Shown here piece after piece: positions 417 through 16,243 of a DNA stretch of 64,000 nt (the stretch's first letter is position 1; the number at the start of each line of letters is the position of its first letter). The translations under genes and the position numbers were made by a program. The notes below the pieces were generated by a model. That model was not told where the DNA came from. It searched no databases and saw only the letters and a program-made list of their open reading frames with translations. The stretch comes from an uncultured Chloroflexia bacterium (GTDB lineage: Bacteria; Chloroflexota; Anaerolineae; Anaerolineales; UBA4823). The stretch spans positions 18,324-82,323 of the forward strand of contig CAVTQM010000063.1 in the NCBI GenBank assembly GCA_963736805.1, read 5' to 3'.

Positions 417-2153
417 TTACACCCCGATCACTTCTCCCACCTTTACCTTCAGGCTCTCCAGACCGGTTTTCGTTTCAGCAAGATTGGTTTGCACTTCCTC
501 AAGCTTTGCCTGTTCGGAGCGCACAAAGCGCGAATAGGGAGCGATGGCATCCTTGATATTATGCATGCCGCGCTCCATCTCCTGTTCAAATTGGGTTCGC
601 AGGGACTGGATGAGCTGTTCTCTTAAATGTGCGATCTTTTCGCGCAGATCAGCTTTGGCCTGGCGCTTCTTGGCCGGGATGATGAACAAGCCCAGCAGGG
701 CGATCACGCTGGCCAGGATGATGCCGGTTGCATCTGCAGCGGCGGTGGTGGCCAGCACAGCAATCAGTGCACCCAGGCTGATTGCCCCAACCTCGGTGGC
801 AGCCAGAGCGGCCACTGCTGTTTGAGCTCCCTCCGCCATGAGGCGTGCTTCAGCTTGACGGTCATAGGTATCAACTACGCGCTGGGCTTCACGTCCTACA
901 CCATCGATCAGTTTTTCCCGGTCGTAGTGGAAGCTTCCCCCGGCTGCATCACCGATGATGCGTTCCTGGTGCTGGCGCCGCCGGTCGGCGAGGTGATCCA
1001 TCACCGCCTGCCATTGGCGCAGGTTGGCTTCCACGAGCCAGTCGATCATCTCGTTCACTTTTTTCTCAATTCTCAGTGGCACATCCGCCACCACCCGCTG
1101 TTCGAATTCCTTTTGGATGCGGGATTTATTCAGCAGGTCAAACACGCGGGGTAGCCGAAGGGTCTCGTCGAAATAATCCTGCCCACGCTGTTCCATCTCG
1201 AAAAGTACTTTTTCAATGTCAGACATACGGAAGTTAAAATCACGCCGCATATCTTCTTGATACAGGGCAAGCTGTGAGTCAACATCTTCCAGCATGGTGA
1301 AATCCGTTTTAAGCAGCTCGAGGCGTGAAAGGGTCACCTGCAGGTATTTTTCAACCAGGTACGAGCCAACCCCGAGGGGGTTCATGAATTTCAATGTCAG
1401 CCGTCCCTTATCATCCAACGTGCTTTGGATATATTTTTCCAGTGCTTCAAAACGGCTGGTTTGCCAAAGTTCCGGCTCTCCAAGCTTGGAGCGCAGCGCC
1501 AGGCGTGCGCTGATCGGGAATATCTCGGGGGAGATGCCAAGTAACGCGCGGGCATTTTCGTTAATGAAGGCAATCACCAGATCCAGTTCTTCCTGGTTTT
1601 GGAACAGGTCAGTCTTGTTGAGCACAATGAGCACTTTTTTACCCCAGTCACGGATTCTTTCCAGAAATGCTCTTTCACTTTCGGTAAAGGGGCGATCAGC
1701 GGATGTGACAAAGAGAACCAGGTCGGAGCGGGGGACAAATTGTTGGGTAATGGCTTCGTGTTGGCGGATAATCGCATTGGTACCCGGAGTGTCCACGATA
1801 TTTAGCTCTGCCAATAATTCCACCGGAGCAGTGAGCGTATGCAGGTTCTCGCTCTCTACCTGCCGTTCCTGCGTTTCACCGTACCGTAAGACGTTGATCT
1901 GGGTCGTGGTGGGCGTGACGCCTTCTTTTAGTAATTTCTGACCCAACAGGGCATTGATAAATGCACTCTTGCCTGAGTTGAACTCACCCACCACCACCAG
2001 CAAAAAAAGCTCGTCCAGCTGGCGAATGGATTGAGCCAGCGTCTCATGATCCTCAGATGTGGCACCAAATTGGATCAGGGAAGCACGCAGGTTATTCAAT
2101 AAGTTGCGGGAATCTTTAAGCAGGCTTTCCTGGGCATCGGTCAGAATTTGCAT
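417..2153 (-). CDS. Bacterial dynamin-like GTPase (BDLP/DynA family)
   Basis: Intact 578-aa ORF. G1 GEFNSGKS, G3 DTPG, G4 NKTD. Long helical stalk and a hydrophobic paddle (ISLGALIAVLATTAAADATGIILASVIALLGLFII). GGAG lies 9 nt upstream of the ATG. Confidence 0.85.
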   Translation of the reverse strand: MQILTDAQESLLKDSRNLLNNLRASLIQFGATSEDHETLAQSIRQLDELFLLVVVGEFNSGKSAFINALLGQKLLKEGVTPTTTQINVLRYGETQERQVESENLHTLTAPVELLAELNIVDTPGTNAIIRQHEAITQQFVPRSDLVLFVTSADRPFTESERAFLERIRDWGKKVLIVLNKTDLFQNQEELDLVIAFINENARALLGISPEIFPISARLALRSKLGEPELWQTSRFEALEKYIQSTLDDKGRLTLKFMNPLGVGSYLVEKYLQVTLSRLELLKTDFTMLEDVDSQLALYQEDMRRDFNFRMSDIEKVLFEMEQRGQDYFDETLRLPRVFDLLNKSRIQKEFEQRVVADVPLRIEKKVNEMIDWLVEANLRQWQAVMDHLADRRRQHQERIIGDAAGGSFHYDREKLIDGVGREAQRVVDTYDRQAEARLMAEGAQTAVAALAATEVGAISLGALIAVLATTAAADATGIILASVIALLGLFIIPAKKRQAKADLREKIAHLREQLIQSLRTQFEQEMERGMHNIKDAIAPYSRFVRSEQAKLEEVQTNLAETKTGLESLKVKVGEVIGV

Positions 2154-2286
2154 AATATGCTCTCCTTAAACCTGATTATAGTTTATTAAATCAAATGCGA
2201 CGCATTGGCTGGAGATGATCCATTATTCCAGTGTATGCGTCGCGTAGTGCTTATCAACACACGGTTGATCTTGTAAGCTAAGTCCC

Positions 2287-2499
2287 TCAGATACTGCCAG
2301 AATTGCAGCTTGACCCCGAGCTGTTGCCGAACGAAAATGAGCTCCCACCTGTCAACCTGGATGCAAAAGTTGAAATTTTCCTGGTGATGTTCAGGCTTTC
2401 GCAGGCAGGGCAGGAGATTTCACCAATTTTACTGGTACTCAACACAAGCATCTCAAATGGTTTTCCGCAATCGGCACACATGTATTCAAAAATGGGCAT
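2287..2499 (-). CDS. FmdB-family zinc-ribbon protein (putative regulatory protein)
   Basis: The 70-aa ORF starts MPIFEYMCADCGKPFE and has a second CxxC (CPACES). The C-terminal tail is Gly/Ser-rich. Confidence 0.75.
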   Translation of the reverse strand: MPIFEYMCADCGKPFEMLVLSTSKIGEISCPACESLNITRKISTFASRLTGGSSFSFGNSSGSSCNSGSI

Positions 2500-2641
2500 A
2501 TTTTTCCTCCGATAAGAAAATGTCCAGAAAAGTCTTCAAGTGCTTATCATACTCACTGGGGGTTGGATCCAAATGATTAGATGCTGGAAGCCTCAAAAGG
2601 ATACACTTGATCAGCAAATCCCTATAACTTGATGTTATCCC

Positions 2642-2670
2642 AAAAAAAAGACCCGGTTTTTCTCCGGGTC
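2642..2670 (-). terminator. Rho-independent terminator after the efflux operon
   Basis: 7-bp stem GACCCGG/CCGGGTC (2650-2656 / 2664-2670), followed on the minus strand by an 8-nt U-tract (A-run 2642-2649). It sits 9 nt past the stop of the adaptor gene. Confidence 0.75.
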
Positions 2671-2678
2671 TCAGTTTT

Positions 2679-3842
2679 TCATGGATTAAAGCTGATTTCG
2701 ACGGTCATCCCCCACCGGAAATTGGGGTCAGGCTGGTCGACGTGCAGGCGAACTTTATAAAGGATATCTCCAGCCTGAACATAGAAATTATCTGCAACCT
2801 CGGTTACCACACCACTTGCTTGCAGCTCAGGCAGCGCATCGGGGGAGATGGAAGCACCCTGGCCAATGGATACTTTTACTACCTCCTGTTCGGTCAGGTC
2901 GTTGGTCTCCACGAACCATTCGGAATAATCTGCCACAAGGACTGCCCATTTGTCGGATCCAACCAACTCCCCATTACTGATATTCACATCAACCACGCTG
3001 CCATCAAAGGGTGCTTTTAAATCCAGGTTATCCATTGCCGCCTGGGCTGAGGTTTGATGCGCAACAGCAGTATCAAAGTTCATTTGAGCGGCTGTAAGCT
3101 GATCTGGATCAGGTCCTTGCCGTGTAGAGTCATAGACACTTTGCGCCTTGGCTTGCATTGATTCAGCCAATTGCAAGTTGGCTTCAACCCTTTCCTTGTT
3201 GATGATGAGTTGGTCGCGCTCATGCACGGCATTGTCATAATCATTTTGAGCATCGTTGAGCGCTGTTTCAGCGGTCTTTCGGGTTGGATTTTCTGGATCC
3301 AAATCAGCATATTTATCAAATTCGGTTTGGGCATCATCCAATTTGGTTTGCATATCCGAAACCTTGATCTGTGCATCGTCGATCTTTTCCTGATATTCAT
3401 CGGTGTCAACCTTGTTCCAGGCTATCTCGGCATCCATAACGCTCTGCTTGGCGTTTAACAATGCCAGCCATGCATTTGCTGACGAGATGGCAGCATTTTT
3501 ATTGAGGTCATCCAATGCTTGTTGGGCATTTTCCACCTCCAGCTGAGTTGCGGTCAGGTTAGCTTCATATTGCTGCCGATCACCCAGGCGTGCCAAAACC
3601 TGCCCTTGTATGACTTGGTCGCCTTGCTTCACCAGAATCTCTTCAATATGACCACCACTGGGAAATGCCAGGTACATATAATCCTTGGGAACCAGGTTAC
3701 CCTGGCTGATGACCGACCCGCTGTCAGCGACGACCGGGGCAGGCGTGCTTTCCGGTGTGCTTTGTTTGTCAAATACGCTGCAGCCACTCAGAAAAAGAGC
3801 AGTGAAGATAAAAATGGAGAAGAATTTTAAGTAGTTTTTCAT
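2679..3842 (-). CDS. Efflux-pump periplasmic adaptor (HlyD/MFP family) lipoprotein
   Basis: 387-aa ORF. Signal peptide with lipobox FLSGC. A long Ala/Gln/Asp-rich coiled-coil hairpin is flanked by beta-barrel segments (GHIEEILVKQGDQV..., APFDGSVVDVNI). Confidence 0.8.
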   Translation of the reverse strand: MKNYLKFFSIFIFTALFLSGCSVFDKQSTPESTPAPVVADSGSVISQGNLVPKDYMYLAFPSGGHIEEILVKQGDQVIQGQVLARLGDRQQYEANLTATQLEVENAQQALDDLNKNAAISSANAWLALLNAKQSVMDAEIAWNKVDTDEYQEKIDDAQIKVSDMQTKLDDAQTEFDKYADLDPENPTRKTAETALNDAQNDYDNAVHERDQLIINKERVEANLQLAESMQAKAQSVYDSTRQGPDPDQLTAAQMNFDTAVAHQTSAQAAMDNLDLKAPFDGSVVDVNISNGELVGSDKWAVLVADYSEWFVETNDLTEQEVVKVSIGQGASISPDALPELQASGVVTEVADNFYVQAGDILYKVRLHVDQPDPNFRWGMTVEISFNP

Positions 3843-3864
3843 GACTCACCTCTTAATATTATTG

Positions 3865-6252
3865 CTATTCATATGCCAGGACTTCACGGATGGTCAGCCG
3901 GGCAGCGTTGCGTGCTGGTAAAACGCTGGCTAATGCTGATAGGATCAGGACCAACCCCAACCAAATAATAAATCCAAGTGGATTAAGCACAAATTGGCTG
4001 GGTGAATTAAAAATTGCCAGGCTGATGATGCGCGAGAGCAGGAACGTGATCGGGAAAGAGAAGATGGCTCCTAAAAACCAGCTGATACTCCCGATGATCA
4101 TTCCTTCAACGATAACCGTCTTCATGATCTGCCCATCGGTTGCTCCAATGGCGCGCATCACACCAATCTCGCGGGTACGTTCCATGACGTTCATACCCAT
4201 GGTTCCGGTCAAACCAATACTGCCAACTAAAGCCGTCAGCAGGGCCATGATGAGTAAGAAATTGATCAGGATCGCCAGGCTCTCTGAAGCGGTTTCCAGA
4301 GTGGAGAGACCAGCCTGTGTTTCGCTGACGTGGTATCCAAGATCGCGTAGATATTTATCAATCGTCGCGCTCATCTGTTTTTGGTACTCAAGCGTGTGTT
4401 CCTCAGTGACAATGCGGTAGGAAAAAGCCTGGTTGGATAGGTTGAGCAGCTCGGAGATGTAATCATAGGTGGCATAACCAATGATTTGATCACGGCTGAT
4501 GAAGCGGAAAATCCCCACTACGGTCCACTCGTCTTCCTGACCGTTAATCTTCAGTTTTAACTCGTCACCCGCCTTGAGGTCAGGAAAATCGCTCCAGATG
4601 GCCTCACTGATGGTGATGGCTTTCTTGTCCCCTGGTGTAAGCCAGCGTCCTTCCAGCATGATCGGCTCAATTAAACTGCTCTCCACTGGTGGAGCCAGGA
4701 TGGTTAAATAATCAGCCACACTATCATCAGGCCGGATGATATCCGCTGAAACGAAAGACCAGCCTTCAGAGTGCTGTACATGCGGGACATCCATGACAGC
4801 CTGGTTGATTTCGTCCACACGGTAAGGCCGATCAAAGTTAAGCGTCACATCGGCAATGAAATATTTTCCGATCTGAGCCATGTAATCTTCCAACGATTGT
4901 TGGACATTGAACACTGCGATGAAAATTGCACCACCAATCGTCAGGGTCAGCAAAGTGAGCAATAAGCGACGTTTACGCCGGAAAGTATTGCGGATTGAGA
5001 TCAACATCGGGCGGGAAAGCCATTTCACCCGGCTTCCTAATCGTTCCAACCAGCCGTAGGTGGCTTTCCCCTTGCTTAATCCACTTCCGCTGATTGCTTC
5101 CTGAACTTTTACGCGTGAACCATTATTGACCGGGATGAATCCAGCTGCTAGTGGAATCAAAATGGCCACCACAATTTGCAAGAGATAAGCCATTGGAACA
5201 ATACGGTAGCCTTGAAGGTTAAAATTCATCTTACTGGCGATAAATTGTGAAAGTGCAAATGCCGCCTGCCCCCCGGTTGGCAGTGCGATCAGTAATGCCA
5301 TCAGCCCAAAGGACAGGATCAGGACAATATACATACCGAAGATTTGTTGGCTGCGTGCCCCGATCAGCTTCATCACCCCGATATGGGGCAGATGCTGGGT
5401 AAGCAACGAGTTAAGCGTGTTGGCGATCAATGAGCTGCTTAAAAACACGATCAAGATACCCAGCGCCATCAGGATTCCTAAGATTGCCTCAACTGTGGAT
5501 GACATGGGATGTTCGTTGGTTTTATTCAGCTCGGTGCGGTAGACCTGTCGATTACTTTTTTCGATCTTGTCCGAGACGGATGTGGAGACCTCGCGAATGT
5601 GTTCGATATCGTTTGAATCACCAGTGACCGTGACCATCAGGCGGTTGTAATTGGTTGGCTGACCCAGCCAGGGGAGGGTGTCGAGCGTTACATAGCCGAG
5701 TGGAGCGGCGAGAAAATCGCCTGCTCCCGTCGTCTGGTCTTGAACAAATCCCACCACGGTCATCTTCTTAATATTGCCATTCGGGAGCTGAAACTCCACT
5801 TCATCCCCGACCTCAACCGAGAGATTATCCAGGGCTTTGCTTTCTAAGATCACCTGTTTATCCGCTGGGATGGGGTTGCCTTCGAGTGGCAATAACAGGT
5901 TAATGTGTGTATCCGTAAAATCATTAATTGCCACCAGGTCAAGGTTGGACCAATCCTCACCTGGAACACGGATACGAACAGAAAAGAAACGTCGCCCTTC
6001 AACCTCTTTTACACCATCCAGGTTACCCAGCGAATCAATAAGATCCTGGTTAAAATCATCCGTACGCATATCGATATTCGCCGGGTTGGCGGAACCATAG
6101 CTGGCGCCCATGTCGTTCGAGATGATTTCATATGCTCCAGCGATCATGCCAATCGAAAAGACACCCACTGCAATCGATGCCACCACCAGCAGGGTGCGCA
6201 TCTTGTTATCCCATAAATCGGAAAGGACCTTGCGCCATCGTGGGCGGATCAT
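3865..6252 (-). CDS. ABC transporter permease with two FtsX/MacB-type modules
   Basis: The ORF track gives 3865..6327. I place the start at ATG 6252 (MIRPRWRKVLSDLWDNKMRT), which abuts the stop of the upstream ATPase at 6254. There are two repeats, each of a TM helix, a large extracytoplasmic domain and 3 TM helices. Confidence 0.85.
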   Translation of the reverse strand: MIRPRWRKVLSDLWDNKMRTLLVVASIAVGVFSIGMIAGAYEIISNDMGASYGSANPANIDMRTDDFNQDLIDSLGNLDGVKEVEGRRFFSVRIRVPGEDWSNLDLVAINDFTDTHINLLLPLEGNPIPADKQVILESKALDNLSVEVGDEVEFQLPNGNIKKMTVVGFVQDQTTGAGDFLAAPLGYVTLDTLPWLGQPTNYNRLMVTVTGDSNDIEHIREVSTSVSDKIEKSNRQVYRTELNKTNEHPMSSTVEAILGILMALGILIVFLSSSLIANTLNSLLTQHLPHIGVMKLIGARSQQIFGMYIVLILSFGLMALLIALPTGGQAAFALSQFIASKMNFNLQGYRIVPMAYLLQIVVAILIPLAAGFIPVNNGSRVKVQEAISGSGLSKGKATYGWLERLGSRVKWLSRPMLISIRNTFRRKRRLLLTLLTLTIGGAIFIAVFNVQQSLEDYMAQIGKYFIADVTLNFDRPYRVDEINQAVMDVPHVQHSEGWSFVSADIIRPDDSVADYLTILAPPVESSLIEPIMLEGRWLTPGDKKAITISEAIWSDFPDLKAGDELKLKINGQEDEWTVVGIFRFISRDQIIGYATYDYISELLNLSNQAFSYRIVTEEHTLEYQKQMSATIDKYLRDLGYHVSETQAGLSTLETASESLAILINFLLIMALLTALVGSIGLTGTMGMNVMERTREIGVMRAIGATDGQIMKTVIVEGMIIGSISWFLGAIFSFPITFLLSRIISLAIFNSPSQFVLNPLGFIIWLGLVLILSALASVLPARNAARLTIREVLAYE

Positions 6253-6253
6253 G

Positions 6254-7354
6254 CTACCACCATCGCCTTCTGCGGTCTGCTGCCCGGTTCTCCGCCATGC
6301 GAGCCTGGACGATCCGGGAGATAGCATCTTCGGTTAATGGCGAGCCAACCAGCATTTCAGTAAAATCTTTACGACGCAAGACTACCAGCTTGACCGGTTT
6401 TTCTGGTGTTGCCCGTACGCTGGCGATTGAATTACCACCATGTATCAATTCAACCTCGCCAAAAAATTCACCTTCACCGAGCCGGGCAATGGTTACCTCT
6501 TCTTGCTTGGCGGGCTCGAGAATAATTTCCACCTCTCCCTCAGTGATCATGAAAAAGGAATCAATATGCTCTCCTTTATGAATGATCGTATTCCCAGCAG
6601 GTATTTCTTTATGCTCAAGTAAATGGGTTACCTTGAGCATTTGAGCGTGGGTAAGCAATGGAAGAGCCTTGGCAACTGTTTCATTAATGATCTTTCCATC
6701 CGAGATGATCAAGGTTCGCGTGGTTCGCTTGGTGATGGATGGGTCGTGGGTAACCAGGATGATCGTCTTGCCCTGCAAGACAAGCTGGTAGAAAAGTTCG
6801 ATGATCTCTTCCGATGAGCGTGAGTCGAGGTTTCCTGTCGGCTCATCCGCGACAATGATAGGTGGGTCGGTCGCCAGTGCCCGGGCAATTGCTGCCGCCT
6901 GCTGCTGTCCGTTAGAGACAGCTGCCGGGAGCTGGTTAGCATGCTCCTGCAACCCAACCATCTTGAGCAGCTCAAAAGCACGTTCCGGGCGTTCGGCTGG
7001 AGAAAACACGTTGCAAAAATCCATCGGAAGCATCGTATTTTCCAACAGGCTGAGCATCGGAAGCAGCTGGAAGAATTGGAAGACGATCCCCAGATTATGA
7101 CCGCGCCATAGTGAACGTTCACTCTCGGTCATTTTATAGATATTCACCCCGTTTACCAGCACCTCTCCGGAGGTCGGGTGGTCAATTCCGGTGATCATAT
7201 TAAGCATGGTGGATTTGCCGCTGCCAGATTTACCCACGATGGCAATAAACTGTCCTGCCAGGATGTCCACATCCACACCGTTCAGGCCGATGTATTCGCC
7301 CGCCGTGGTCTTGAAGCGCTTAACCACCTGGCGAAGTTGAATCATCTGGGGCAT
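6254..7354 (-). CDS. ABC transporter ATP-binding protein fused to a C-terminal cyclic-nucleotide-binding-like (CAP_ED) domain
   Basis: Walker A GKSGSGKST, signature SNGQQQ, Walker B IIVADEPT. The C-terminal ~130 aa match the CAP effector-domain pattern (IPAGNTIIHKGEHIDSFFMITEGEVEI...LGEGEFFGEVELIHGGNSIASVRA). Confidence 0.85.
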   Translation of the reverse strand: MPQMIQLRQVVKRFKTTAGEYIGLNGVDVDILAGQFIAIVGKSGSGKSTMLNMITGIDHPTSGEVLVNGVNIYKMTESERSLWRGHNLGIVFQFFQLLPMLSLLENTMLPMDFCNVFSPAERPERAFELLKMVGLQEHANQLPAAVSNGQQQAAAIARALATDPPIIVADEPTGNLDSRSSEEIIELFYQLVLQGKTIILVTHDPSITKRTTRTLIISDGKIINETVAKALPLLTHAQMLKVTHLLEHKEIPAGNTIIHKGEHIDSFFMITEGEVEIILEPAKQEEVTIARLGEGEFFGEVELIHGGNSIASVRATPEKPVKLVVLRRKDFTEMLVGSPLTEDAISRIVQARMAENRAADRRRRWW

Positions 7355-7366
7355 TAGCTACTCCGT

Positions 7367-8155
7367 TCATCGCTGCTCCTGGGCGGATACCAGGTGGAAT
7401 CCTGAATCAGCGGTGATGGTCCCGTCCGCAATGAGCAGTCGGCGTGTGAAGCGTGGGGCAAGGTTGTTGTCATGCGTGACCATGATGATGGTACGTCCCT
7501 GCTCGATCAGCTTCTCAAATATCTCGAAGATGGTTTCGGCGGTGAGCGTGTCCAGGCTGCCGGTTGGCTCATCTGCGACAATGATGGGAGGGTCATTGGC
7601 AAGGGAGCGGGCAATGGCAACCCGCTGCTTCTGCCCACCCGAGATGTAAGCTGGCAGCTTATAGGCGTGATCTTCCAGCTCCATCAATGTGAGCAGCTCA
7701 AGGGCGCGCTCCTTACTGATACGCCGCTGATAATGACCACTAAAATCCACTGGCAGCATGATATTTTCCACCAGGTTGAGCATGGGCAGCAGCTGAAAAG
7801 ACTGGTGGATGATGCCTACATTGCGACCGCGCCACACAGCCAGGGAATTCTCGCTCAGCTTGTGAATGGAGGTGCTCTTCCCGTCTGGGTCATTGAAGAC
7901 AACCTCACCGGACGTGATCATGTCTGCGCCGGTGATCATATTGAGCAGGGTAGACTTGCCTGCCCCAGACTTGCCAATCACACCCACGAACTCGCCCGCG
8001 TGGAGATCAGCCGTAATGCCCTTGAGGGCGGTGAAATCACCTGCGGCGGTATTGTATACCTTGACCACCTGGCTTAGCTGGATGAGAAGCCTGTGGTTAT
8101 TGGTTGGGGGAACTGGAAGGGAAGAAAAGTAAGAATTCATCTTTATATGCGACAC
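7367..8155 (-). CDS. ABC transporter ATP-binding protein (MacB/LolD-like), first gene of the efflux operon
   Basis: Walker A GKSGAGKST, signature SGGQKQ, Walker B IIVADEPT. Start is GTG at 8155 or ATG at 8140. Confidence 0.85.
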   Translation of the reverse strand: MSHIKMNSYFSSLPVPPTNNHRLLIQLSQVVKVYNTAAGDFTALKGITADLHAGEFVGVIGKSGAGKSTLLNMITGADMITSGEVVFNDPDGKSTSIHKLSENSLAVWRGRNVGIIHQSFQLLPMLNLVENIMLPVDFSGHYQRRISKERALELLTLMELEDHAYKLPAYISGGQKQRVAIARSLANDPPIIVADEPTGSLDTLTAETIFEIFEKLIEQGRTIIMVTHDNNLAPRFTRRLLIADGTITADSGFHLVSAQEQR

Positions 8156-8531: not shown

Positions 8532-8545
8532 AGAACAAATGTTCT
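8532..8545. promoter_or_regulatory. LexA operator candidate (Cheo-type SOS box, GAAC-N4-GTTC)
   Basis: Perfect 14-bp palindrome AGAACAAATGTTCT that directly overlaps the extended -10 element of the downstream cassette. Confidence 0.7.
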
Positions 8546-8553
8546 GGTATAAT
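8545..8553 (+). promoter_or_regulatory. Extended -10 promoter element (TGgTATAAT) of the GC-rich cassette
   Basis: TGGTATAAT at 8545-8553. ATG 8560 follows 6 nt later, which suggests a leaderless transcript. Confidence 0.55.
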
Positions 8554-8559
8554 CAAAAT

Positions 8560-9132
8560 ATGGACACTTATACATACCCCACTCTGAACCATTCCAGGAA
8601 TATGGATGATTCTCTTCAACTTTCCCCCCGCCAGCTTCACCTGGTGCTGGCACCGCACCGGGCTCAACGCCAGATGATGACTGTCTTGACCGCGCGCCTG
8701 GCAGTAACCAACCGGGTGCGCCTGGTGGATGCTGGCAACTGTTTTGATGGCTACGGGCTGGCACGCCAGCTGCGCCAGCGGACGTCGTCCTGGCAGGCTG
8801 CACTGGACCGGGTAAGCGTGGCACGCGCCTTCACCTGCTACCAGGTGGAAACGCTGCTGACCGAGTCGGTGGCAGACTTCTCGCCCGTGCTGGTGCTGAA
8901 CCTGCTGGACACTTTCTACGACGAGAACGTGAAGCTTTCAGAGCGGATGCGCCTGCTGGAAGTAAGCCTATCCGAGCTGCGGCGGTTATGCCGCTCAGCA
9001 TCTGTGGCGGTGAGCGCCAGTTTACCCAACCGCAACCAGCCGGGAGAATTGCTTGAAATATTGGCGGGTGCAGCCGGACAGGTATGGAGCTTTGAAGAGC
9101 CGCAGCCTGCCGAGCCATTGCGCCTGTTTTAA
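8560..9132 (+). CDS. Hypothetical protein, predicted RecA/KaiC-like core without a P-loop (ImuA-like candidate)
   Basis: The ORF-track ORF is 8524..9132. I prefer ATG 8560 (alternative 8602) because 8524-8553 is occupied by the operator and -10 element. Hydrophobic strand motifs alternate (LHLVLAP, VRLVDAGN, VSVARAF, PVLVLNLLD, ASVAVSA) and there is no GxxxxGK[ST]. The fold call is inference only. Confidence 0.5.
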   Translation: MDTYTYPTLNHSRNMDDSLQLSPRQLHLVLAPHRAQRQMMTVLTARLAVTNRVRLVDAGNCFDGYGLARQLRQRTSSWQAALDRVSVARAFTCYQVETLLTESVADFSPVLVLNLLDTFYDENVKLSERMRLLEVSLSELRRLCRSASVAVSASLPNRNQPGELLEILAGAAGQVWSFEEPQPAEPLRLF

Positions 9133-9143
9133 GGAGGTTCTTT

Positions 9144-9563
9144 ATGGGACGCACACTTCCATCTGTTACGCAAGTTTTTCTGAAAGAGCAGGAGTTTTTC
9201 CTGCGTTTCCGGCGTGCCCTGCGGCGCAGCGACCAGAAAGCACTGGACGACCTCTTCGCCGCGGCCCACAAGCACCTGGCTGCCGCAGCTTATGCCGCAC
9301 ATGCCCTGCCTTTCGAGGTCTTCCTGCTTTCGATGCTGCTGGAGGAACACAAGCAGGTGCTGCGCATGCGTTACCTGCTGAACCCCAGCGATGCGGCCGC
9401 CCTGGAGCAGCTGGAGCAGGGCGATTCCACGGCCTACCTTGATTCGCTCGCCGCAGAGGTGGAAGGGGGTGACCCTGCCCCACTTCGCACGCCTCTGAGG
9501 AGACGCAGCACCGGCCTCACCTCCTGGCCGGGTGGAGGCAGAGCCCCCGGCCTCGCCTCCTGA
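9144..9563 (+). CDS. Hypothetical small Ala/Leu-rich (predicted helical) protein with a Pro/Gly/Arg-rich tail
   Basis: 139-aa ORF with AAGGAGG 6 nt upstream. It lies 11 nt after the previous stop and 14 nt before the polymerase ATG. I recognise no family. Confidence 0.5.
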   Translation: MGRTLPSVTQVFLKEQEFFLRFRRALRRSDQKALDDLFAAAHKHLAAAAYAAHALPFEVFLLSMLLEEHKQVLRMRYLLNPSDAAALEQLEQGDSTAYLDSLAAEVEGGDPAPLRTPLRRRSTGLTSWPGGGRAPGLAS

Positions 9564-9577
9564 CCTGCTCAACTTGC

Positions 9578-11852
9578 ATGGCTGAACTCAAAGGCTGGCT
9601 GCTGGACCTGTTTGCTGATACGCACAGTGGGATTGTGCTCTGGCTGGTGGGTGAGGATGGGCAGCGCCATCGCCTGATTCAGGATTTCCCCATCACCTTT
9701 TATGCGGCTGGCGAGTCAAAACGCTTGCGGCAATTGTGGCGCTTCCTGCAGTCTCAGCCGGAGAAGGTGGAGCTGAAGCGCACCACGCGGCAGGATATCT
9801 TCTCATCCCAACCTGTGGAGGTACTGGAAGCCCGGTTGGACCAAACGGCAGCTCAGCCTAATCTTTTCCAACGTGTCGCCCGCGAATTCCCCGAGCTGCC
9901 TTATTACGACGCTGACTTGCCCATCACCACGCGCCATTCTGCCCTTTACAATACCTTTCCACTGGCACACTGCCAGGTGGAAGCAGATGAACGGGGTGCC
10001 GTGCAGGCACTGGAAGTGTTGGATACGCCCTGGGAGCTGGACCCCCCACCACCCCCTCTGCGCCTGTTGGCGATCGAGCCAGATGTTGACCCGGCACACG
10101 CAGATCCGCAGGCCCTGTACGTGCGCTCCATGAGCGTTTCCTACCGATTCAGCCTGGAACACCCCCGCCCGCTGCTGGTCAACCTGCGCGCAATTCTCCA
10201 GCGCCAGGACCCGGATGTGCTGATGACTGCCTGGGGCGACACCTGGCTGCTGCCTTACCTGATCGACCTGGCTGAAAAGTGGCGCATCCCGCTGCCCTTG
10301 AACCGTGAGCCAGGTCGGGAGGTCATCCGCAAAGATGAGCGCAGCTACCAGGCTTATGGGCAGGTGATCTACCGTGGCAAGCAGGTGCACCTGTTTGGGC
10401 GCTGGCATATCGATGGTTGCAATGCAATGCTGTTCCATGAGTACGGTCTGGAGGGGGTGTATGAGCTGGCGCGCGTCACTGCCCTGGCCGGCCAGGTGGT
10501 GGCACGCGTTTCGCCCGGCAGCGGCATTTCTGCCATGCAAATGGTGACTGCACTACGCCTGGGGATCATGGTGCCCTGGCACAAGCAGCAAGCCGAACGC
10601 CCCAAAAGTGCCCTTGAGATGATGCAGGCTGACCAGGGAGGATTAGTCTACCAGCCCCTCATCGGCCTTCACCGCGATGTGGCGGAGGTGGACTTCATTT
10701 CGATGTACCCCAGCATCATGCGCCACTTTAATATCTCGCCCGAGACGGTGGCAGACCCGAATGCTAAAGGGAGGGACCAGTACGCCCGGCTGGAGCGGGT
10801 TTCGGAGCTGGGTTTGTGGATCGACCAGGATACCGTCCGGCCTGATCCCCCAAACGCTGGCTCCCCTGCTGGACAAACGCCTGGAGCTCAAGCTGCGTCT
10901 GGCAGAGTTGCCCGCCTGGGACCCACGTCGCCAGACTTACCAGGCTCAAGCTACAGCTCATAAATGGCTGCTGGTCACCTGCTTTGGCTACCTGGGTTAC
11001 AAGAACGCCCGCTTTGGGCGCATCGAAGCCCACGAGGCGGTCACTGCTTATGGGCGCGAGATGCTGCTGCGCGCCAAGGAGGCTGCTGAAGACCTGGGAT
11101 TCACCGTGCTGCACATGTATGTGGATGGCTTGTGGGTGAAAAAGAAGGGATTGGCGGATGTGCCGTCGTTCCAGCCGCTGCTGGAGGAGATCACCACCCG
11201 CACCGGTCTGCCGATTGCCCTGGATGGAATTTACCGCTGGGTGGCTTTCCTGCCCTCCCGCATGGATGAGCGCGTGCCGGTGCCCAACCGTTATTTTGGT
11301 GTCTTTCAGGATGGCAGCCTGAAGATGCGCGGCATTGAGACCCGCCGTCACGACACGCCAGCCTGGGTGGCTAATGCGCAAAAGGAGATCCTCGATATCC
11401 TGGTGCATACCTCCGATGTGGAGGACCGCTCCACCTACCTACCCCAGGTATTAAGATCACTGCGCAGGGCGTTGACCAGGCTGCGCACATCTGGGGTGCG
11501 TGTGGAAGACTTGTTGGTCTCGCAGACGTTAAGCCGCGAGTTATCGGAATACCGCACACCCTCACCAGCTGCCCGGGCGGCGGCACAGCTGGCTGCGCGG
11601 GGTAAGCACCTGCGCCCGGGGCAGCGGGTGCGCTTCGTATATACGCTGGGTGAGCCGGGTGTGCATGCCTGGGATTTGCCCCAGCAACCTGAGCTGCGCA
11701 GCATAGACCAGGAACGCTACCGGGTATTGTTATTCCGTGCTGCCGCCACCATCCTGCAGCCGTTTGGTGTGGAAGAGGATGACTTAAAAACCCGCGTGAT
11801 TTCAAATGCATTTGATGTAACCTTTTTTGCACCGATGTATCTAAATAGTTGA
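9578..11852 (+). CDS. Family B DNA polymerase (archaeal/Pol II-like architecture) with degenerate exonuclease motifs; one frame disruption near 10828-10840
   Basis: Two overlapping ORFs (9578..10963 and 10677..11852) join into one PolB. Motif A is EVDFISMYPSIM. GLIPQTLAPLLDKRLELK follows after the frame switch. Motif B region is KWLLVTCFGYLGY and motif C region is VLHMYVDGLWV. Confidence 0.8.
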
Positions 11853-13039: not shown

Positions 13040-13440
13040 ATGGCGATTGAATTTGTTATATCAGCATTGATTCCCGCTACTCCGCAGGAAGTTTATAGCA
13101 GCCTGGTTGAGTTCGGAAGGCCATTCCCAGATGACAGGTGGGTCAGCATCCATAAATTCGGATTGGGGAGGCGAATTTGAAGCCTGGAATGGTTATATCC
13201 ATGGGAAGAATCTTGAGCTGGAACCTGGCAAACGCATTGTTCAATCCTGGCGGACGTCAGAATTCAATGCGGATGAGCCAGACTCGCGTATAGAAATAAC
13301 CTTGGAAGCAGTCGGTGATCATGACGAAGCTCACATTACTGCACACGGATCTTCCACTGCATGGAATGCAGTATGAGCAGGGCTGGCTGGAGAATTACTT
13401 TGAGCCGATGATAGTATATTTTTCAGGTTCTACTGCCTGA
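13040..13440 (+). CDS. SRPBCC-superfamily (Aha1/AHSA1-like) protein; two frame disruptions
   Basis: MAIEFVISALIPATPQEVYSS in frame 2, then SEGHSQMTGGSASINSDWGGEFEAWNGYIHGKNLELEPGKRIVQSWR in frame 0, then LLHTDLPLHGMQYEQGWLENYFEPM in frame 1. Confidence 0.65.
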
Positions 13441-14652: not shown

Positions 14653-15051
14653 TCAGTGAATAGCTGGATCTTCGATAATAACAACACTCCCATCAATCTG
14701 CACCAGGCTGCCAGAGAGGATTTCTTGGATGGGTAACTGGTCCACACACGGGATTTCGGCAATAATACAGCCCACCGCAATAATGGTCTCGCATTCCGCG
14801 TTGAGGATGGCAAGTGGAGCGTGTCCGTTCATCTTCAGGCGGTAAAGCGTATAAGAGCCCACTGTGGAACCTTTCCCGGTGGGGAAGACCAGCACCTTCC
14901 CGGCGATACACTGGCCTTCCAGGGGATGCCCCCGCTCAACCACGATACCTGTCTCGGGGTCTACGCCACCGAAGAAGGAGATGGGTTGAGATGTAACCAA
15001 GGCTTCACCCTGGGCATTGCCCTGAAAAATGCTGCGCCCATGGAGTATCAC
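14653..15051 (-). CDS. Aconitase X swivel-domain subunit (DUF126, AcnX small subunit)
   Basis: 132 aa: GEALVTSQPISFFGGVDPETGIV...GKVLVFPTGKGSTVGSYTLYRL. Its ATG overlaps the stop of the large subunit (ATGA). Confidence 0.8.
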   Translation of the reverse strand: MILHGRSIFQGNAQGEALVTSQPISFFGGVDPETGIVVERGHPLEGQCIAGKVLVFPTGKGSTVGSYTLYRLKMNGHAPLAILNAECETIIAVGCIIAEIPCVDQLPIQEILSGSLVQIDGSVVIIEDPAIH

Positions 15052-16243
15052 TGTAATGCCAGCCTGACTACTTCATCGAAGGGGAGAAGCAGCGTCTTGA
15101 ATTTGTTCTTGGCGGAGGCATAATAACAGGCTTTGGCGCTGTCCGTTGCCATGGCGGTGAAGCGACCCTGGATGGGAGCGACAACGCAGCAGGTATCTGC
15201 GGCAAATTTTGCGCCGGCAGCCTCGATAATGTGGGTATAACCGAGCTGGTCCGCAATCTGCCTGGTGGCACGTGCAGTGGTAATCCAGAACTCTTTTTTC
15301 ACCTGCCGGCCATCCAACAGGCGCGCGATCTGCTCAATCTCATGAATGCTCAGGTGTGGGCAGCCCAGGCTGACGAAATCCACTTCCGCTGCGCTGGCAT
15401 CGTTGAGAGATTGCATGGCAACCTCAAGCTCTGGCTGGGTGACCTCGACCTGATCCAGTCGGGGCCGTGAAGGATGATGCTTCGGGTGTGACGCCCTGCA
15501 TGTGGAACAGCGCAGCTCCACCGTAAGTTGCCAGGCTGGCGCACAAGGATTTGAGGTTTTCCAATGTGGCAGATTGAATCCCCGTAATGTAGGCGATGGC
15601 TTTGGAAGCCTGGATGTGTTCTCCAATCAGCTTACCCAGCCCACCGAATTCACTGGTTTCTTTCAGGCAGGGATTGACCTGGAAGGTCAGTGTTGGGCGC
15701 CTATTTTCAGCCAGGTGATAGCCATATTCGGGGGTAAGTCCGGTGAGGGCTGATGCCAGGGCGGACGGTCCACCTTCACGGTTGGTACGGGCACCCAGAA
15801 CTGAGTTCGCGTAGCACACCGCCGAACTTTCCGACCAGGCAATGTGCTCACCAAATAGAGGTAGATTACCGATGAGATATGGGGTACAGGTGCAAGTGGT
15901 GGATCATTCCCATCCTTGAATAGGCATCCAAAACACGCTCCTGTTTCTCTGCAAAATCCGGTTGGATGCCCAGGCTGCGCCAGTTTTCGATGTCCATCCC
16001 GGCAGGGTTGAGGGTGGTTTGCACACGCACTTTACCGCCTCCGTCAGCCATCTCAGAAAGGAACTGTAGCCCGGCCTCCCCCAGGTTGTCATAACTCACC
16101 CCGGCGATCTGGACTGAACTGACTGGGATCATACGCTCAGCACCATAAATCTCGCCCAGGGCAACCAGGATTTGCATGGCTTTCCGGGTCGCTCGGCCTT
16201 GAGAGCCATCAAGCATTGCGTTTTGTTCAGGAGTAAGCAGCAT
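15048..16243 (-). CDS. Aconitase X catalytic subunit (DUF521, AcnX large subunit); two frame disruptions
   Basis: Three collinear ORF fragments (15866..16243, 15424..15819, 15048..15626). They read MLLTPEQNAMLDGSQG...VSSVQIAGVSY, then CYANSVLGARTNREGGPSAL, then VDFVSLGCPHLS...CCVVAPI. Confidence 0.75.

Follow-up and report, generated by a model that had tools for sequence, protein, structure and literature searches.

The window analysed here, a stretch of 64 kb from an Anaerolineae (Chloroflexota) genome, carries three adjacent genes on the forward strand, in the bacterial order iRadA-PPB2-PolB2. They encode an ATPase-dead protein with a Rad51/RadA core (iRadA, ORF1, 8560..9132), a small helical protein called partner of PolB2 (PPB2, ORF2, 9144..9585 once its end is repaired) and a B-family DNA polymerase (PolB2, ORF3), read in two parts between 9578 and 11852. 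Upstream lies a palindromic operator, AGAACAAATGTTCT, at 8532..8545, a Cheo/LexA-type box of the form GAAC-N4-GTTC. It directly abuts an extended -10 element, TGgTATAAT, on the forward strand at 8545..8553; both were read directly and stand where the preliminary description of this DNA had placed them. The region was compared with 127 related loci, 47 from genomes and 80 from metagenomes. We estimate at roughly 85% the probability that it is a bacterial PolB2 mutasome operon, the best explanation of the data when it includes the mechanism, the LexA-type control and the origin of its frameshifts by error that are discussed below.

ORF1 can be read from the ATG at 8560 to 9132, and all the peptide strings previously quoted from it are present. 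Scans of the single protein against Pfam, NCBIfam and PADLOC yielded only a weak Rad51 hint (E = 0.054), and a single-sequence search of the PDB returned nothing useful. Because single-sequence searches were weak for this protein, a family profile was needed; it matched RadA, Rad51 and DMC1 in the PDB at E = 3e-7. The AF2 model has a pLDDT of 95.5, and its best Foldseek matches are RadA, RAD51 paralogues and DMC1 (E about 5e-9, TM 0.63-0.76). Profile, model and Foldseek agree on a RecA-type fold without Walker A, as had been proposed: GxxxxGKT is absent, APHRAQRQ stands in its place (family consensus LLxAPR), and an Asn occupies the position of the Walker B Asp. With 176 to 190 amino acids, iRadA comprises the ATPase core only, without the N-terminal helical domain. 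Profile and predicted fold make ORF1 a RadA/Rad51 derivative of archaeal type. The extreme C-terminus reads [Q/P]-[L/P]-R-L-F in about 110 of 150 family representatives; the tail in the window, PLRLF and not QLxLF, is predicted to be a beta-clamp-type motif.

The start of iRadA is ambiguous. The N-terminus conserved in the family begins at the ATG at 8602 (MDDSL), which may be the true start and would give a protein of 176 amino acids, the length of many homologues. An ATG at the position equivalent to 8560 is also found in other clades, and is missing in four close relatives. The ATG at 8560 lies 6 nt past the -10 element, a spacing that would fit a leaderless mRNA.

For PPB2, the Shine-Dalgarno sequence AAGGAGG reported upstream of the ATG at 9144 was found by direct reading at 9131..9137 on the forward strand, overlapping the iRadA stop codon. 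The PPB2 family has been described as helical, about 90 amino acids long and endowed with a conserved N-terminal MGRT arm (PMC11791011). The window protein has this arm, and MGRT forms the N-terminus of every ORF2 homologue whose start can be read, in 45 genome loci. ORF2 had no match in single-protein scans against Pfam, NCBIfam and PADLOC; a precomputed match to PF26485 exists on PPB2 homologues. Its model, of low confidence (pLDDT 54.6, shallow alignment), consists of three long helices (residues 8-27, 31-51 and 56-77). In relatives, PPB2 finishes with ...LHG*, and its stop codon TGA shares bases with the ATG of the polymerase (ATGGCTGA). The window copy stops at 9563 as read, and its repaired end is a TGA at 9583-9585.

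The identification of ORF3 as a B-family polymerase with degenerate motifs is borne out by Pfam and NCBIfam matches to type-B polymerases and by alignment to 5mdn; BLASTP likewise places its N-terminal part (9578..10834, forward strand), which contains a decayed exonuclease domain and motif A (DFISMYPS). The C-terminal part (10836..11852, same strand) contains motif B (KWLLVTCFGYLGYKNARFGRIEAHEA), motif C and the thumb. When aligned to 5mdn and 4fm2, Exo I reads IEPD in place of FDIE, and Exo II AWGDTWL in place of NxxxFD; the 3'-5' exonuclease active site is thus predicted to be lost. Motif C, HMYVDG, aligns to YGDTDS of 5mdn, DTD being changed to YVD: the first Asp is replaced and the second is kept. 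This xxD Asp is invariant in 41 family members, among which YVD, LTD and IVD occur as variants. A BLASTP comparison with the published N-terminal 399 amino acids of the Haloarcula PolB2 gave 31% identity (E = 4e-31), and the polymerase resembles archaeal PolBs (1e-44) far more than E. coli Pol II (7.7e-7). Its best NCBIfam models, NF004416 and NF004418, both score below cutoff. The KWLLVTCFGYLGYKNARFGRIEAHEA signature matches published PolB2 rows in the supplement of PMC11791011, where YVD is listed for Chloroflexota. On these motifs and similarities the polymerase is a member of the PolB2 clade, and not of the Pol II or Pol-epsilon-like bacterial groups. Orthology to E. coli Pol II (polB) in particular was considered and rejected: the polymerase has lost the exonuclease motifs, lacks a C-terminal motif and shows weak similarity to Pol II. 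In the clade of the window, PolB2 ends in ...YLNS, without a clamp motif. In the published complex, a PolB2 loop with a Rad51-oligomerisation-like beta-alpha motif and a subsequent D(K/R) is predicted to bind iRadA and the PPB2 arm. Where this loop is expected, residues 239-262 hold a conserved L-x-L-N-R-[ED] and S-Y-x-x-Y-G, with NR at the place of D(K/R).

All three proteins show the defining features of the published PolB2 family, and the three-gene cassette is already known. Makarova et al. 2014 (PMC4104785) described the PolB2/iRadA/PPB2 operon and its association with lexA in bacteria, and Timinskas, Timinskas & Venclovas 2025 (PMC11791011) modelled a heteropentameric 'PolB2 mutasome'. 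The supplement of the latter lists many Chloroflexota/Anaerolineae operons with exactly the iRadA-PPB2-PolB2 order and YVD motifs. Gene order is variable in archaea and fixed in bacteria (PMC11791011). In our comparison, the three genes were found in this order in all genome loci with sufficient flank, and tight packing was kept in every relative examined, so that the neighbourhood is conserved, a point that the preliminary description had proposed to check. Its statement that no equivalent was known is contradicted by these two papers, which include Anaerolineae members: the window holds an ordinary bacterial copy, nothing new in kind. With the bacterial PolB2 operon of type 1a, of which many listed examples come from its own phylum and class, it shares gene order, strand and packing, as well as the YVD motif, the decayed exonuclease, the MGRT arm, the Walker-A-less RadA core and the beta-clamp-type C-terminus of iRadA. 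It differs from published bacterial operons in that lexA is not adjacent, the SOS link being a promoter operator that was not analysed in PMC4104785 or PMC11791011, and in that the window copy has two probable sequencing frameshifts. What is added to the published operon is a strongly conserved LexA-type operator inside the promoter.

AGAACAAATGTTCT is the sole exact GAAC-N4-GTTC in the window. Given a chance expectation of 0.69, and at least one occurrence in 50 of 100 shuffles, a single box is unremarkable by itself, and its significance therefore rests on position and conservation. An exact box is present 5' of the iRadA gene in 91 of the 117 related loci that have upstream sequence. The related loci, 1.2 Mb in total, contain 100 exact boxes, and 93 of them, distributed over 91 loci, stand no more than 900 nt 5' of iRadA; the first 0.7 Mb contained 44 exact boxes, against about 10 expected, and 38 of these were at the operon. 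The exact boxes at a distance from the operon contain GC-rich spacers and resemble chance matches. One-mismatch boxes in the window are fewer than expected by chance and have no informative positions. The operator consensus across related loci is TA-GAAC-AWAT-GTTC-T. Its position between -35 and -10 is fixed across clades whose iRadA proteins are only 36-50% identical, and the relatives retain TATAAT or CATACT at a matching distance from it. Where a clade lacks the TGn, a canonical TTGACA lies 3 nt 5' of the box. There is no good -35 in the clade of the window, which explains why a simple sigma-70 scan did not call the promoter; a terminator 3' of the polymerase was not found by the same simple sequence scan.

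The LexA protein of Dehalococcoides binds GAAC-N4-GTTC. In B. subtilis and other Gram-positives, the same sequence serves as the LexA motif (PMC3323433). LexA control of the operon is strongly suggested by how well its operator is conserved, and since the palindrome is a Gram-positive-type LexA box, the operon is predicted to be, most likely, a direct member of the SOS regulon. The palindrome, (T)AGAAC-N4-GTTCT, of 14-16 bp, would fill the promoter spacer beside the -10 element; a dimeric repressor sitting on it would block RNA polymerase, and the operon would be derepressed after RecA-stimulated self-cleavage of LexA. By tblastn, no lexA, recA or dinB was found in the window, the 47 genome loci and the 80 metagenome loci, with the exception of a LexA/S24-like gene beside the operon in L045, the sole MAG labelled Bacteroidota. 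In the searchable literature we found no report that supports LexA control of a bacterial PolB2 operon at the level of its operator. It is probable that Anaerolineae have wired a horizontally acquired archaeal PolB2 mutasome directly into their SOS regulon, via a LexA operator in the promoter spacer (TAGAAC-N4-GTTCT), with a probably leaderless mRNA and no lexA nearby.

The question arises as to whether the operator and the genes could be read otherwise. The palindrome might bind a repressor that is not LexA, or be a promoter-spacer element, in which case the operon would escape SOS control in Anaerolineae. Such a situation would account for the fact that lexA is never adjacent in Anaerolineae loci, and that no second regulon member with the box was seen in the window and the fetched loci. 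Moreover, a GerE/LuxR-type HTH gene sits between the box and iRadA in one sub-clade, and GerE is among the neighbourhood-enriched families in Table S1 of PMC11791011. However, the palindrome is an exact and extended match to the Gram-positive-type LexA box, lexA is enriched near bacterial PolB2 operons in several other phyla (PMC4104785, PMC11791011), the archaeal operon is damage-induced (PMC11791011), and exact boxes away from the operon are chance-like; we therefore regard this possibility as unlikely. The reading frames raise a different doubt. The preliminary description took 9578-11852 for one ORF, but frame A runs from 9578 to a stop at 10963, and frame B carries the remainder to 11852. 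The polymerase gene is split by a 1-nt insertion, an extra G at 10835 (forward strand), which is absent from all relatives (L001, L002, L004 and L009 lack it); deleting it restores a protein of 757 amino acids, a length found uninterrupted in 17 relatives. In the same way, the end of ORF2 at 9563 results from a tail frameshifted by an extra base near 9495, as seen in alignment with L001, L002, L006 and L009. The tight packing of three ORFs on one strand thus stands, whereas the limits given for ORF2 (9144-9563) and the continuity of ORF3 do not. Programmed frameshifting at 10835 was rejected because the site lacks conservation, the gene is in frame in relatives, and further genes of the window are broken as well. 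Two independent frameshifts at most 1.4 kb apart in one operon, neither of them in a long homopolymer, could be real mutations in a decaying pseudogene cassette. We consider this quite unlikely: the remainder is under strong purifying selection (88-97% protein identity to relatives, with DNA identity of about 86%), and removal of one base gives exactly the 757-residue length. Compared with L001, 1-nt indels interrupt unrelated neighbouring genes too (that at 15048-16243 is in three pieces in the window and intact in L001), and L001 and L002 have frameshifts of their own elsewhere, a pattern typical of consensus errors in long-read MAGs. Given that the neighbouring gene is split too, sequencing or assembly errors are the most likely cause of both frameshifts.

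Even with an intact gene, the complex could be a catalytically dead one, with a regulatory or fork-processing role in place of translesion synthesis. This was the original 2014 idea for an 'inactivated' PolB2, Makarova et al. (PMC4104785) having suggested that it acts at stalled forks or regulates replication, and it agrees with the loss of the first motif C Asp and the alteration of the motif B Asn and Tyr. It is nevertheless very unlikely, as three residues never vary in the family, namely the Asp of motif A, the second Asp of motif C and the Lys of motif B. Moreover, Sulfolobus Dpo2, whose motif C reads IID, is catalytically active as a polymerase, and damage-induced mutagenesis depends on it (PMC7390963 and PMC8764526, as summarised in PMC11791011). 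Finally, the preliminary description saw here an SOS mutasome of a kind not described before, in the style of ImuA/ImuB/DnaE2, with an ImuA-like protein partnering a B-family polymerase. Superficially the analogy is good, in that a LexA-type box precedes a specialised polymerase that is accompanied by an accessory protein and an ATPase-dead member of the RecA superfamily. Its functional gist holds: a damage-response-type, multi-subunit cassette with a degenerate B-family polymerase, an ATPase-dead RecA-superfamily partner, a small helical protein and a LexA-type box. As an account of what the proteins are, it is hardly tenable. NCBIfam ImuA models do not match ORF1, whose sequence and fold matches are RadA, Rad51 and DMC1; ORF2 is not a Y-family ImuB; and the literature, in which the cassette is published as the PolB2 operon or mutasome, refutes its novelty.

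The mechanism that we favour for the PolB2 operon is drawn from published archaeal genetics and biochemistry and from AlphaFold models. By analogy, PolB2 would be a B-family polymerase that is error-prone, has a dead exonuclease and extends primer ends that are mispaired or lie opposite a lesion. The models predict that it binds one iRadA through the Rad51-oligomerisation-like loop, and that a PPB2 trimer sits on PolB2, the MGRT arm inserting near the active site. In the lineage of the window, iRadA would anchor the complex to the beta-clamp through its C-terminal [Q/P]LRLF. For the bacterial complex, the stoichiometry, clamp binding and translesion role are thus extrapolations from archaeal work and models.

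Several known systems resemble this one to different degrees. The PolB2/Dpo2 operon of Sulfolobales, which is damage-inducible and required for targeted mutagenesis, has three homologous proteins and the same damage-response context, and the first Asp of DxD is replaced in both (IID in Sulfolobales, YVD in the window). It relies on Orc1-2/TFB3-type regulators and PCNA motifs, whereas the bacterial version presumably relies on LexA and a beta-clamp motif. ImuA-ImuB-DnaE2 is alike in outline, as a LexA-regulated, error-prone, multi-protein polymerase, one of whose subunits is an inactive RecA-superfamily member and another an accessory protein that binds the clamp. Its components are, however, not homologous to those of the window: ImuB is a Y-family and DnaE2 a C-family protein, ImuA does not resemble RadA, and the ImuA, ImuB and DnaE2 models of Pfam and NCBIfam matched none of the three proteins at E <= 1. 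E. coli Pol V (UmuD'2C-RecA) is also LexA-controlled and offers a parallel architecture, with a polymerase, a RecA-family subunit and a small subunit whose N-terminal arm is inserted, but it is a Y-family enzyme that uses active RecA. E. coli Pol II is a LexA-controlled B-family polymerase like the one proposed here; it differs in consisting of one subunit, which proofreads with an active DEDDy exonuclease and carries a clamp motif of its own at the C-terminus.

To our knowledge, no prokaryotic B-family translesion polymerase other than the PolB2 mutasome has several subunits, and we know of no bacterial PolB2 complex that has been studied experimentally. The conserved layout of an operator within the promoter offers a testable handle on whether this archaeal-derived complex joined the bacterial SOS response, and the conserved C-terminal clamp motif of iRadA provides a second one.

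The palindrome AGAACAAATGTTCT (8532-8545), the extended -10 element TGgTATAAT immediately after it (8545-8553) and the ATG at 8560 can all be read from the sequence as the preliminary description had placed them, and three genes follow downstream on one strand, encoding iRadA (ORF1), PPB2 (ORF2) and the polymerase PolB2 (ORF3). That description proposed a LexA-controlled, ImuA-like SOS mutasome with no described equivalent. However, Makarova et al. 2014 (PMC4104785) had already reported an operon of PolB2, arCOG07300 and an inactivated RadA, which occurs in archaea as well as in several bacteria and in some cases includes lexA; the names PPB2 and iRadA were given to the PolB2 partners by Timinskas et al. 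2025 (PMC11791011).

The published features agree point by point with the window cassette, which is therefore already known. In bacteria, iRadA-PPB2-PolB2 is the only gene order; the MGRT arm and the replacement of the first Asp of DxD are recorded, beta-clamp motifs are found chiefly on iRadA, a PolB2:iRadA:PPB2(3) heteropentamer has been modelled, and the supplement contains many type 1a Chloroflexota/Anaerolineae operons with YVD and iRadA clamp motifs (PMC11791011). Cultured carriers of the operon are also in that table, Ornatilinea, Longilinea and Pelolinea being examples. The signature KW[IL]LV.CFGY.GY.NA[RK]FGRIE.HEA is common to the window polymerase and the polymerase rows of that supplement, and a 2026 survey of bacterial polymerases names the group G2/PolB2 (PMC12926913). 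The cassette thus adds one more ordinary operon to the bacterial PolB2 mutasome family, with nothing new in kind. The mechanistic intuition of the first reading was good; its claim of novelty and its comparison with ImuA were wrong.

The comparison with ImuA fails on ORF1, which has no ImuA model match. Its profile retrieves the ATPase cores of archaeal RadA, Rad51 and DMC1 from the PDB (best E = 3e-7), and Foldseek, run on a very confident AlphaFold2 model (pLDDT 95.5, pTM 0.89) as had been suggested, recovers RadA, RAD51 paralogues, DMC1 and RAD51 (E ~5e-9, TM 0.63-0.76). The predicted RecA-type fold lacking a Walker A motif is thereby borne out: in a 61-sequence alignment, where the conserved core reads ...VRVLDGGNxFD...ARAFTCYQ...LVLDLLxTFYDEN..., Walker A is absent from the family and LLxAPR occupies the position of GxxxxGKT. 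At the extreme C-terminus, about 110 of 150 representatives carry [Q/P]-[L/P]-R-L-F (PLRLF in the window), a predicted beta-clamp-type pentapeptide.

ORF2 begins with MGRT in all 45 genome loci with a readable start, and a 16-sequence alignment shows no variation at R24, D30, Q31 and P56 either; a low-confidence model from a shallow alignment has three long helices preceded by an unstructured arm. Among known structures, the polymerase is closest in sequence to archaeal PolBs (5mdn, 1e-44); the match to E. coli Pol II reaches only 7.7e-7. In the alignment with 5mdn the motif A Asp is retained (DFISMYPS), whereas motif C reads HMYVDG against YGDTDS, with Tyr for the first Asp and the second retained; Exo I and Exo II are both gone. 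Among 41 family members the Asp of xxD is invariant and the first position varies (YVD, LTD, IVD). With its reading frame repaired, the window polymerase is 31% identical (BLASTP, E = 4e-31) to the N-terminal 399 residues of a Haloarcula PolB2 from the supplementary table of PMC11791011.

This repair was needed because the polymerase, first described as a single ORF (9578-11852), lies in two frames, 9578-10963 and the rest up to 11852. Alignment with four relatives identifies the G at 10835 as one surplus base; without it the protein has 757 aa, just as in 17 relatives. ORF2 (9144-9563) is likewise present with its tail out of frame, owing to a second surplus base near 9495; in relatives it ends ...LHG*, its TGA shared with the polymerase ATG as ATGGCTGA. 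Such breaks could reflect biology, that is, a decaying reading frame, or consensus indel error of a long-read MAG assembly. The latter is the simplest reading, since an unrelated minus-strand gene at 15048-16243 is broken as well, 1-nt insertions near 15453 and 15901 dividing it among three overlapping ORFs, while its counterpart in the related locus L001 (14442-15635) is one 397-aa ORF, and since L001 and L002 have frameshifts of their own at other places. A small ORF at 13107-13376 is also shortened by an indel near 13306, and together with the split gene it indicates that such errors are frequent in this assembly. The operon is probably intact but mis-assembled.

Sampling at one genome per species gave 47 related loci, 46 from Anaerolineae/Chloroflexota MAGs and one labelled Bacteroidota. 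By tblastn, all loci whose flanks are long enough keep the order ORF1-ORF2-polymerase, even where ORF1 identity is as low as about 31%, so that the three-gene neighbourhood is indeed conserved. The ORF1 family comprises 881 clusters at 50% identity, and the ORF2 family at least 5,914 proteins by profile search. ORF2 has no match in our local Pfam copy, yet all the homologues P0271-P0390 carry the precomputed match PF26485.1, so a PPB2 family apparently exists in a newer Pfam release. In the Bacteroidota-labelled locus (L045), a divergent LexA/S24-like gene (6993-7385, minus strand) lies just upstream of the operon, and the last residues of PolB2 (8821-11154) are QQLSFFYG, apparently a clamp-type motif that is here carried by the polymerase instead of iRadA.

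In the window the operon stands alone. Its upstream neighbours (417-8155, all minus strand) are not DNA-repair genes. Pfam assigns one as a dynamin-family GTPase and another as an HlyD-type membrane-fusion protein; two ATPases with Walker A motifs, along with a large membrane protein, resemble by eye a MacB-type ABC exporter. No SRAP or DUF72 gene was found adjoining the operon.

A single exact GAAC-N4-GTTC in 64 kb is unremarkable by chance (0.69 expected, at least one in half of shuffles), and the window has no second one. In 1.2 Mb, counting the window together with the 47 genome loci and 80 metagenome loci, 93 of 100 exact sites are no more than 900 nt upstream of iRadA, and 91 of the 117 loci having upstream sequence carry such a site. 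The consensus is TA-GAAC-AWAT-GTTC-T, and its position within the promoter is fixed: distant clades have TTGACA-n3-box-TATAAT or CATACT, and the clade of the window has a TGn extended -10 and no good -35. These elements vary together across the promoter alignment of all loci: TGn is missing from the clades that have the canonical TTGACA, and the window's clade shows the reverse. A repressor dimer on the spacer box would occlude RNA polymerase. In several clades the ATG lies only 6-7 nt past the -10, as does ATG 8560, which suggests a leaderless mRNA. ATG 8560 is missing in four close relatives and the conserved ORF1 N-terminus begins at 8602, so that translation may start at either.

Some loci depart from this arrangement. 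In L007 (7431-8001) the operator is kept and about 500 bp are inserted between it and iRadA, cutting the box off from the -10; the insert holds a transposase-like fragment, IS66-like by eye, fused in frame with iRadA. In a sub-clade of eight loci (L106, L095, L098, L105, L108, L118, L119, L121) the box lies 600-870 nt upstream; in L106, the one inspected (9367-9968), a 140-aa ORF resembling by eye a GerE/LuxR-type HTH regulator intervenes, and the unit under the box would there comprise four genes, that of this second regulator included. In L031, L033, L037, L040 and L042 the distance is about 250-500 nt, all five having a long untranslated leader and four a conserved hairpin, gggcGAAAgccc, directly 3' of the promoter.

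Dehalococcoides LexA binds GAAC-N4-GTTC. The same sequence serves as the LexA motif in B. subtilis and in Gram-positive-type regulons (PMC3323433). In published work, bacterial PolB2 has been linked to LexA by gene adjacency only, operators not having been analysed, and the lexA-adjacent operons in one part of the PMC11791011 table belong to other phyla; no lexA was found near the operon in the Anaerolineae loci searched. From the sequence, we put at roughly 0.7 to 0.75 the probability that LexA binds the strongly conserved operator. Archaeal Dpo2 is damage-inducible, and targeted mutagenesis depends on it, according to the summary in PMC11791011. What is gained over published work is operator-level evidence, modest and testable, that the operon may belong to the SOS regulon.
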